A stretch of DNA of 64,000 nt from Octopus vulgaris (lineage: Eukaryota), in contig OX597821.1 of NCBI GenBank assembly GCA_951406725.2, positions 94,550,001 through 94,614,000 of the forward strand, written 5' to 3'. A program made the position numbers and the translations under genes. The notes below the pieces were generated by a model. That model was given only the letters and a program-made list of their open reading frames with translations, did no database searches and had not been told where the DNA came from. This document shows, one piece after another, positions 3,032 to 61,336 of the stretch. The first letter of the stretch is position 1. The number at the start of each line of letters is the position of its first letter.

Positions 3032-3277
3032 CGGGGTGAGTACTTGATAATTATAAGCACCTGTGTATACCGTTTGGTGGTGTAGGTGGTGGAGTAAATT
3101 GATCAAAATAAAATAAAAACATGATGCGAAGGATTCAGCGGTACATATGTTTCGGGCCTTTATTAGACAGATTTATAACATACATTATGCATTGTTATAA
3201 ATCTGTCTAATAAAGGCCCGAAACATATGTACCGCTGAATCCTTCGCATCATGTTTTTATTTTATTTTGATCAATTT
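3028..3277. mobile_element. Fold-back element with 85-bp inverted arms carrying the hammerhead 3' half
   Basis: Arms 3096-3180 and 3193-3277 are reverse complements; each has GAAAC-ATAT-GTA; unique tail 3028-3095; (TA)n flanks. Confidence 0.8.
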
Positions 3278-11694: not shown

Positions 11695-11789
11695 TATAAG
11701 TATAAGGATGAAAAGGGACACACGAGTTGATATATATGAAAAAACAAGTCAAGATAGAAAATGCTAAAATAATTTTATAAAGAACATTT

Positions 11790-11826
11790 CAGTACCGGTT
11801 TCGGTCATTTGAGACCTTTTCAACTG
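11790..11826 (-). ncRNA. Minimal type I hammerhead ribozyme, U3-A8 core variant
   Basis: cag-TTGAAAA-ggtc-tcaaat-gacc-GAAAC-cg-GTA-ctg: stems I, II and palindromic III all pair. Confidence 0.7.
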
Positions 11827-11895
11827 TAACTATTAAGTAATTGAATTTAAAAAAAAAAGAAAAGTTTTTTTTCTAATTTAATTATTTAATAGTTA

Positions 11896-11932
11896 CAGTA
11901 GAAAAGGTCTCAAATGACCGAAACCGGTACTG
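11896..11932 (+). ncRNA. Second hammerhead copy with a core mutation (TAGAAAA)
   Basis: cag-TAGAAAA-ggtc-tcaaat-gacc-GAAAC-cg-GTA-ctg. Confidence 0.55.
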
Positions 11933-11999
11933 AAATGTTCTTTATAAAATTATTTTAGCATTTTCTATCTTGACTTGTTTTTTTCATATATAAAGGGGT

Positions 12000-22232: not shown

Positions 22233-22651
22233 CATTACTATACATAAATGCCATACGCTAGGAGGGACTCTTAAGAATAAACACATCATACCGAATGCAA
22301 CTCTCGAAGCAAGTAATTTAAAAGCAAAATTTAGCTGCAGACCACGTGATTTCATAATTAGTACAGTAATGCACTTTTTAATCATCAGTGCAAGCATAAT
22401 TCAAGATTTATAACGAATGAACAAAATCAACATACCAGACGAACAACCAATGTATCTAACGTAGCATATAGAAATGTTCACCCTTTATACATCTATGTAA
22501 ATGGCGGGCTTTTTCGAATTGCATTTCGGTAACAACCTGCTTATTCGGAGTAAAAATTCAGTTGTTACCGAAATGCAATTCGAAAAAATCCGCCATTTAC
22601 ATAAATGTATAAAGGGTGAACATTTCTGCAGTTTCGGCCGGTTACACTCGA

Positions 22652-22704
<53 letters not shown>

Positions 22705-22708
22705 AACA

Positions 22709-23387
<679 letters not shown>

Positions 23388-27798: not shown

Positions 27799-27849
27799 GA
27801 CACCTGATGAAAGCTGGGGGGGGGGGTATATCAGCCGAAACGTTGTGTT
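27799..27849 (+). ncRNA. Minimal type I hammerhead ribozyme
   Basis: gacac-CTGATGA-aa-gctg(loop)cagc-c-GAAAC-GTT-gtgtt: canonical core, stem I gacac/gtgtt, stem II gctg/cagc, palindromic AACGTT stem III. Confidence 0.75.
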
Positions 27850-28242
27850 AACATCAAACAAGATGATAAGACATATGGTAACCAGGAAGAAGGATTTACC
27901 TCATTAAAACCGTCTTTCTTAAAAGTCATCTGGGATTGCTTATTTCTGTGCTTCAAGCTCTCGAAAGAGAATGGCCTGTAACCACTTACATAAAATGCAA
28001 AGAATGTGAGCAGAGCAAGTCGTGAAGAGAATGTTATAAAGTTGATAGCAGGTCTTAACAACTACAGTATCATCAATATAACGTGTTTTATGAGTAAATA
28101 TGTAAATGGAATGACATCTATATCTGTAATAATCATTTAGTCTTGCAGCAAAAGTGGGTTTCTATCACCCACCCACTCACTCTGTATCTCTCTGTGTACA
28201 AATATATGAATCAATTCATCTAATTGTCTATATTCCTCTCCC

Positions 28243-28750: not shown

Positions 28751-31828
<3,078 letters not shown>

Positions 31829-60184: not shown

Positions 60185-60332
60185 TCAAAATATCAAAGTT
60201 AACAAGTGCAGCAGCAAACGACACTATGGCCAACACATTTAACTGCTGCACAGCAATAACAACAAGAAGCCGCCGGTTGCAAGAAGCAAGAAAAGTAGAT
60301 TAAAAGCAAGTAATATATAACAGTAATAGAGT

Positions 60333-60759
60333 TGTAAAGTATAGAAGCCATCTTATCATGGCTAACCACATAGGGGAGGGGGTGTTACTGTAGTTTTATA
60401 GCCCCAAGAGATCGTCGTCTCCAGCTGGCTTTAGACACCATTTCAGTGCCCTTGAAGTATTTGCAAAGGGAGGCCATCCCTTCCTCGCAAGCCTGAGTGA
60501 TACGCTCGGACTAGTTTCAGGATTTTTGTCCCTTGTCCGAGCGTATCACTCAGGCTTGCGAGGAAGGGATGGCCTCCCTTTGCAAATACTTCAAGGGCAC
60601 TGAAATGGTGTCTAAAGCCAGCTAGAGACGACGATCTCTTGGGGCTATAAAGCTACAGTAACACCCCCTCCCCTATGTGGTTAGCCATGATAAGATGGCT
60701 TCTATACTTTACATTATCGAGCGATTACTGTTTCAATCTCATTCTGAGATTTAATTATG
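60333..60759. mobile_element. Fold-back element: 179-bp arms, 23-nt loop with hammerhead 3' half, 46-bp tail, 14-bp TSD
   Basis: Arms 60333-60511 and 60535-60713 (2 mismatches seen); agtaatagagttgt at 60322-60335 and 60760-60773. Confidence 0.88.
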
Positions 60760-61336
60760 AGTAATAGAGTTGTTATTGTTAAATGTTGTAGACTGTGACG
60801 AGGAAGAGGATGGCTGTTCGCAGTGGTGGCGAAGAGGATGGCTGTTCGCGGTGGTGGTGGTAAAATTCCCATTCGTTTGACTGTGTAGTTTTTTTTTTCT
60901 TATCAGACAGACATATTTCTATAATAGACACTAAAATTGTTTTACTGACGTGAGTATGAGAAATGAATTTATGAGAGCAGACTTTCAAAAGCTAGCCCCC
61001 ACCCCGAGTAATTTAATATAGAAATAAAACAATAAAGAGAGACCGATATAGAAAGAGAAAAAGAGAAAGAAAGAGATTTCAGGTAGAAAGGAAGAGTGAG
61101 AGGAAGTGACACGTGTTTATATGACAATCAGACCTAAATAAAATCTCGTAAAATGGCTGACCTTGAATTTTATTACAAGAAGCTGGGTGTCTAATGAAGT
61201 CCTTTTTAACTGCTTTCCTAATTGTGTCGAAATTGTGAAATGATATTTAGCTTTCCATTTTGTTGCTGTTTAGTTCTATATCAGCTCCAACCCAACTAAA
61301 CACAACACCAGTAACTTTTTTTGTAGCCATATATAG

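Follow-up and report, generated by a model that had tools for sequence, protein, structure and literature searches.

A hairpin insertion in Octopus vulgaris DNA joins two truncated, head-to-head copies of a repeat end inside a hammerhead motif

Why does a long hairpin in the DNA of Octopus vulgaris turn around beside the predicted cleavage site of a hammerhead ribozyme? The hairpin lies in a stretch of 64,000 nt (assembly GCA_951406725.2, contig OX597821.1, positions 94,550,001 to 94,614,000 of the forward strand), which we call the window and in whose coordinates all positions are given. The host DNA of the window is animal-like, rich in microsatellites and interspersed with many short repeats, and presumably resembles octopus repeats. 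A preliminary description of the locus had tied the inversion point to the cleavage site and had proposed that a cDNA folded back, or switched template, at stem I of the ribozyme. We found that the locus arose as a single insertion, in which a repeat end that bears a hammerhead is present in two truncated copies placed head-to-head. We propose, with a probability of roughly 0.55 for the account as a whole, that the insertion is a Penelope-like pseudo-LTR, that both nicks of one staggered cut were used, and that the cDNA ends were joined at a GTC/GAC overlap.

The insertion is bracketed by a direct repeat (Table 1) whose two copies are identical and are the only occurrences on both strands of the 64 kb. 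This bracketing repeat supports a single retro-insertion, as had been suggested from the start. The two arms (60333-60511 and 60535-60713, each 179 nt, including 3 nt common with the left repeat) differ at 2 of 179 positions (60394/60652 and 60422/60624). The tail is found on one side only, the left arm ends at the target duplication, and no flanking DNA was copied into the palindrome. The G+C content of the target duplication is 29%, in agreement with the AT-rich targets of endonuclease-bearing Penelope-like elements. No second copy of the insertion was found elsewhere in the 64-kb window.

Table 1. Features of the hairpin insertion at 60322-60773, in window coordinates
Feature	Position	Strand	Remarks and evidence
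Left copy of target-site duplication	60322..60335	+	14 bp; final 3 nt shared with the element
Left arm, tailless outward-pointing copy of the element	60336..60511	-	outer end at or within a few bases of the inner fixed end of the family
Spacer of the palindrome	60512..60534	.	23 nt; equals the extra length of the left copy
Junction overlap GTC	60535..60537	.	antisense of core positions 5-7 and sense cleavage triplet
Right arm, element copy pointing outward	60538..60713	+	begins 0-3 nt before the predicted cut
Tail, family sequence between two fixed 3' ends	60714..60759	+	46 nt; contig depth and loose ends
Right copy of target-site duplication	60760..60773	+	direct repeat; 597-nt contigs of X2 and X4
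Predicted 3' part of minimal type I hammerhead	60503..60537	-	sequence and family contigs

Read on the minus strand, the centre of the hairpin contains core positions 5-9 (60537-60533, GACAA), stem II (60532-60519), GAAA (60518-60515), the palindromic loop III CUAG, and UC. The predicted cut falls between 60509 and 60508, and the 3' strand of stem I starts beyond it. We defined the minimal type I hammerhead according to PMC4209133, as a CUGANGA or UUGANAA core, stem II, GAAA, a palindromic loop III and UH. The sequence bears out the preliminary reading of stem II, GAAA, CUAG, UC and the cut site. The accompanying remark that CUGANGA is absent was not confirmed, since GACAA represents positions 5-9 of a U3-A8 core: the window copy keeps five of the seven core letters, from position 5 onward only, and its core is shortened rather than absent. 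Core positions 3-4 and the 5' strand of stem I are missing, stem II has 4 bp with a closing G.U pair, and the window copy cannot fold as a ribozyme in cis. The plain CUGANGA pattern, which is blind to the U3-A8 form, had 10 matches in the window (5.45 expected), none of them at the locus. A search of the window with Rfam returned 0 matches at the gathering score, and below that score only generic hairpin matches at the locus.

Further copies of the element were sought among contigs from four public runs placed on 60485-60828: 1,005 from X1 and 1,059 from X2 (both labeled organism A), 690 from X4 (organism B), and 75 from X10, an RNA run by our guess. None of the runs listed as carrying the sequence is on record as RNA, and rows with small shares do not enter the analysis. 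Twenty-four loose ends and 32 pieces were listed, with 185 and 2,825 more, respectively. Summed depth in the DNA runs is 1e4 to 8e5 across most of the arm and tail versus 42 and 21 on the flank; these sums are not copy numbers, and we use the contrast between arm and flank only as a marker of an abundant repeat. Within the tail, depth in the DNA runs stays at 1e4-3e5 up to 60760 and then collapses to 21-42 or 0 on the flank. Among the loose ends listed, unlike AT-rich sequences follow 60759 in 13 contigs of X1 and 8 contigs of X4, and follow 60714 and 60717 in 7 and 7 contigs of X4. The depth through the tail and these accumulations of loose ends imply that the tail belongs to the element and is delimited by two fixed 3' ends. 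Arm and tail thus belong to one abundant repeat family with two fixed 3' ends, one per end of the tail. The outer ends of the two arms in the window coincide with these two 3' ends, the inner of which lies at about 60713-60717 in right-arm coordinates. The possibility that the tail is filler or target DNA is ruled out by the contigs, which show it to be family sequence. Another candidate reading of the tail, as a second, antisense hammerhead half, was dropped despite a minus-strand hairpin followed by GAAAC; the hairpin has a 3-nt non-palindromic loop and an ordinary folding score (z −0.42), and no core was found in the element DNA.

The family contigs also contain the part of the motif that the window copy lacks. 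Past 60537 on the plus strand, 7 contigs of X1 and 2 of X2 go on with AA, followed by a stem I strand that pairs with 60538-60543 at five of the first six positions by eye. In sense orientation, the family core of X1 and X2 is UUGACAA, the U3-A8 variant that has been reported for Cercyon elements of Schistosoma (PMC4209133). Stem II and the palindromic loop III are kept among variants: a single X10 contig has TGACGA and a GGGA/TCCC stem II with loop III unchanged, and X4 has a different stem II and a 6-nt palindrome. As read by eye from 30-letter loose ends, the family is predicted to carry a full minimal type I hammerhead, with core, stem II, GAAA, palindromic loop III and UH. The X1 and X2 consensus sequences behind 60537 are alike for 16 letters, to approximately the outer edge of stem I, and then part, which is a weak hint that many family copies end there. 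The X1 consensus closes with 13 letters identical to window positions 60291-60303, possibly by chance.

At the central junction, the left copy tracks the family to 60537, 29 nt beyond the cut site, and because it reads through the cut, its template was uncut. The right copy begins at 60538 or up to 3 nt earlier. Since the GTC fits both copies, the switch could lie anywhere from the cut to 3 nt before it; the right arm had been said to start exactly at this triplet, and the triplet is where it was reported, but the exactness is lost. In a wider register, five of six bases pair between 60532-60537 and 60509-60514. The chance of a 3-nt overlap is about 1.6%, and that of five pairs in six about 0.5%. 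The coincidence of junction and cut is equally explained by the GTC/GAC overlap, with no cleavage involved, and a single locus with a three-letter overlap cannot show RNA self-cleavage. A cDNA that had reached stem I would have left AA and the 5' strand of stem I behind 60537; neither is in the window, and therefore a switch at stem I is unsupported. Of the mechanism in the preliminary description, what survives is that the junction formed inside the ribozyme during insertion. The link between inversion point and cleavage site loses force, given that the left template was uncut, that a 3-nt overlap suffices, and that other palindromes in the window turn 39-82 nt away from their predicted cuts.

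The arrangement of tail and loop places a useful constraint on how the palindrome arose. The two are on opposite arms, and one fold-back of a cDNA primed at the tail end would put them on the same arm; therefore, two primings are needed under any model. Moreover, the tail is on the shorter copy, which is impossible by a single fold-back, so both nicks must have primed. This constraint connects the inversion with an activity on both strands that has been observed in vitro: the Penelope-like protein of an anole, a predicted dimer, cleaves each of the two strands and extends them, begins at two internal sites on either side of the tail, and uses uncut RNA, with no need for ribozyme cleavage (PMC11167929). 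That inverted copies originate from two nicks is our inference, and the available text of PMC11167929 does not treat such copies. An inverted truncated copy with a tail on one end and duplications of 8-10 bp is described as typical in two other studies (PMC3846280, PMC8557442).

We propose the following route. A Penelope-type nuclease encoded by the element would nick both strands, 14 nt apart. The top-strand end would prime at the inner start site, aided by the 3-nt match, and the bottom-strand end would prime at the outer site, 46 nt further 3', which would produce the one-sided tail. Both cDNAs would stall at the structured ribozyme, and their ends could then anneal, core positions 5-7 being complementary to the cleavage triplet in the family, with repair filling in the remainder. 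Ribozyme cleavage would be unnecessary for this route. That the insertion is of the Penelope type is very likely, priming at both nicks is probable, and for the annealing of two cDNAs as the way in which the centre was closed we see even odds. Several observations count against this account: no reverse transcriptase or GIY-YIG gene is linked to the locus, so that the driver of the reaction is deduced; the agreement of the arms at variable sites (see below) would also fit a fold-back; four inversion joints of other copies have no letters in common across the joint; and one family copy in X1 stops exactly at the cut, followed by an untemplated base, as would be expected of run-off from cut RNA.

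Inversion joints in other family copies vary in position. Five joints were listed, and four of them, all from X1, run from antisense to sense. Their left-type ends are at 60508 (exactly at the cut), 60533, 60534 and at least 60537, and their right-type ends are at 60647, 60601, 60591 and 60677. No letters are shared across these four joints, and three carry 1-5 untemplated letters. The sample is biased, in that three of the joints have <30 letters on the short side and left-type ends are visible only within about 60505-60537. Together with the locus itself, these joints show inverted, 5'-truncated, head-to-head copies. They also show that palindrome centres vary among family copies, that one end can stop at the cut, and that joining by overlap is not a rule of the family. 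In addition, copies in all four runs join sequence resembling the reversed tail end to the arm at 60649, which may represent a further inverted junction at a distance from the ribozyme, or else a chimera in which a short repeat takes part.

Other palindromes in the window also bear hammerhead-like motifs. The motif GAAA-palindrome-UH is present in four of the five long local palindromes examined, and it occurs 6 times in 1,335 palindrome bases versus 6 times in 62,665 other bases. The three hammerhead-bearing palindromes other than our locus belong to different families, and their arms continue beyond the predicted cut for 39, 65 and 82 nt; only one of the four thus has an arm end at the cut. 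The head-to-head palindrome at 11731-11992 belongs to another family and has what looks like a complete U3-A8 minimal hammerhead on its left arm and a mutated core on its right arm, with arms extending 65 nt beyond the cut and a one-sided left extension that adjoins an AT repeat. The palindrome at 3096-3277 has perfect 85-bp arms within an AT repeat and is extended on one side by about 68 nt; both arms carry GAAA-CATATG-TA, but a core was not seen. In an older palindrome at 22706-23057, a CTGACGA core precedes GAAA-CATATG-TA by about 60 nt, which would suit a hammerhead whose stem II is very long. The palindrome at 22470-22627 has arms of 67 bp; its 24-nt spacer lacks the motif, and the centre may itself represent a stem II. 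A solo motif resembling a minimal hammerhead, with a run of G in loop II, is at 27804-27850 on the plus strand, and its predicted fold is not ribozyme-shaped.

Could the centre have been closed in another way? In a self-priming scheme, the left cDNA would end at core position 5, loop back onto its GAC and serve as its own template, and the tail would come from a short cDNA that started at the other nick and annealed to the newly made strand. Such a scheme has been favored for Penelope palindromes in the Discussion of PMC3846280, and it would use the identical GTC/GAC overlap. It would also account for the haplotype that the arms share almost throughout: of the variable rows listed within the arm, 16 are identical between the two copies, so that any two templates came from a single source. 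The exception is 60624, which is a polymorphism of the family (A or G, with A at 37, 30 and 21% of depth in X1, X2 and X4); a new mutation would match it by chance in about 8% of cases, a rough figure, and the difference would mildly favor two templates. It lies 86 nt from the centre, however, and is still compatible with an inner fold-back. The fold-back is weak as DNA, with −1.0 kcal/mol for the best fold of 60500-60537 and +0.4 when the hairpin is forced with an open loop; this hairpin is not the best fold in a longer context, and two primings are still required. We regard self-priming as rather unlikely. Even less can be said for a single fold-back or template switch at stem I, the form given in the preliminary description. 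The junction is 2 nt from the start of stem I, and stem I is self-complementary; yet the two core letters and the 5' strand of stem I that family contigs have behind 60537 are missing, and one fold-back would have left the tail on the opposite arm, which makes this form highly improbable.

A role for cleavage itself would arise if the right cDNA had run off the 5' end made by the hammerhead and had then been joined to a left cDNA copied from uncut RNA. One possible reading places the first letter of the right arm exactly at the cut (under a uniform model, a landing within 0-3 nt has a chance of about 2-4%), and one of the four inversion-type joints of X1 ends exactly at 60508 with one untemplated base. 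Run-off, however, makes the overlap a coincidence. The other three joints, in a biased sample, overshoot the cut by 25, 26 and at least 29 nt, and the three other palindromes in the window also extend well past theirs. Minimal hammerheads are reported to cut poorly in vitro (PMC4209133), and ribozyme mutants left insertion unchanged in the anole system (PMC11167929). We consider run-off unlikely. The same low standing applies to its fuller form, in which the hammerhead would fix the point of closure: a dimeric Penelope enzyme would prime from both nicks at the two start sites that flank the tail, making one run-off cDNA from cleaved RNA and one cDNA from uncut RNA, which would zip together at GAC/GUC. 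If true, the genome would preserve traces of in vivo hammerhead cleavage in the centres of such palindromes, and a single reaction would explain the inversion, the tail on one side and the target duplication.

An assembly or library artefact, such as a chimeric fold-back read, is very improbable. The central junction is absent among the 32 pieces listed, and the left junction was not seen in reads either; of the anatomy described earlier, the near-perfect arms, one-sided tail, direct repeat and hammerhead half stand. In X1, of which 80% was read, no contig covers the right flank, which we do not take as absence. Against an artefact, the target duplication is perfect, both outer ends are at fixed ends of the family, the arms differ at two sites, and other copies also carry inversion joints. 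Furthermore, the right junction is present in 597-nt contigs of X2 and X4 that cover 60736-60828 with one differing letter each, although with 24 letters on the tail side these contigs are short of the 31-letter rule for bridging. The insertion therefore spans two organism labels and is not private to one assembly, which qualifies its earlier description as young: the arms have diverged by only 1%, but the right junction is found under both labels. No empty allele was seen among the 24 loose ends listed. A DNA transposon bounded by terminal inverted repeats, for example a MITE, or a palindrome that repair created once the insertion had taken place, would likewise provide long inverted arms and a target duplication. 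The asymmetric tail, the variable centres among copies, the hammerhead, and a left arm that halts at the target duplication without copying flanking DNA leave such an origin close to negligible.

We therefore return to the two-nick account, under which the locus behaves as a Penelope-like insertion and is likely the stump of a pseudo-LTR. The insertion contains no open reading frame for a reverse transcriptase or GIY-YIG nuclease and no long open frame. A protein search with its 41-aa frame, a weak query, gave three candidates, none significant, and no longer relative. Among 147 frames compared with Pfam (two from the element and 145 from the window, the longest of 195 that passed a complexity filter out of 377 stop-to-stop frames of at least 60 aa), none matched a reverse transcriptase or GIY-YIG domain; the only hits, in one frame, were all below the cut-off and unrelated. 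Scans of viral contigs and metagenome contigs with exact patterns found no match. Elsewhere in the window, minus-strand frames at 28948-29424 and 30626-31021 had no Pfam hit; they resemble decayed pieces of an R4/Dong-type non-LTR retrotransposon.

The inverted truncated copy, the tail at one end, the short target duplication and arms of about 180-220 bp are features of endonuclease-bearing Penelope-like insertions as described by Arkhipova et al. 2013 (PMC3846280) and Craig et al. 2021 (PMC8557442). Unlike the insertions described there, the locus has no coding region between the repeats, and only the two ends remain. Its tail, which as in those elements lies on one side between two fixed 3' ends, is slightly longer (46 versus 30-40 nt), and its duplication has 14 bp versus 8-10 bp in the rotifer cases. 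The resemblance extends to PAc, a Poseidon element of Anolis carolinensis, which has two internal start sites bounding a tail downstream of the hammerhead, AT-rich targets and an uncut RNA template (Frangieh et al. 2024, PMC11167929). The start sites of PAc are at about 111-118 nt and the length of the tail further, inside an ORF that begins at stem II, whereas those of our locus are at about 175 and 220 nt behind the cut, with no long open frame.

The predicted ribozyme has the type I order, the lack of a real stem III, the palindromic loop III, the U3-A8 covariation and the high variability from copy to copy of minimal hammerheads in metazoan Penelope-like elements (Cervera and de la Pena 2014, PMC4209133). 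In contrast to those hammerheads, the window copy is without core positions 3-4 and the 5' strand of stem I, and its stem II is short and closed by G.U. Pairs of hammerheads on opposite strands, 100-700 bp apart, have been noted in the same work. The locus is also similar to animal non-LTR retrozymes, which are described in bioRxiv 10.64898/2026.07.22.740005 as short non-coding units that contain a type I hammerhead and for which an origin from pseudo-LTRs is proposed. Retrozymes, however, consist of two or more head-to-tail tandem units with complete ribozymes, while the locus is single, truncated and head-to-head. No title or abstract opening in our literature search, which left subscription papers mostly outside, linked inversion centres to a hammerhead cut. 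The origin of inverted Penelope-like ends and hammerhead cutting in cells are regarded as open questions in PMC8557442 and PMC11167929.

The locus is real and tidy, and both its structure and its type of insertion are already known; it is of use mainly because it points to an inexpensive census of an abundant family. It also resembles LINE-1 twin priming, attributed to Ostertag and Kazazian in 2001, in which both nicks are said to prime and an inverted 5' part reportedly lies inside one target duplication. There, the two cDNAs are said to copy different parts of one RNA; at our locus, unlike in LINE-1, both copy the same 176 nt, so that two RNAs, or the re-use of one, would be needed.
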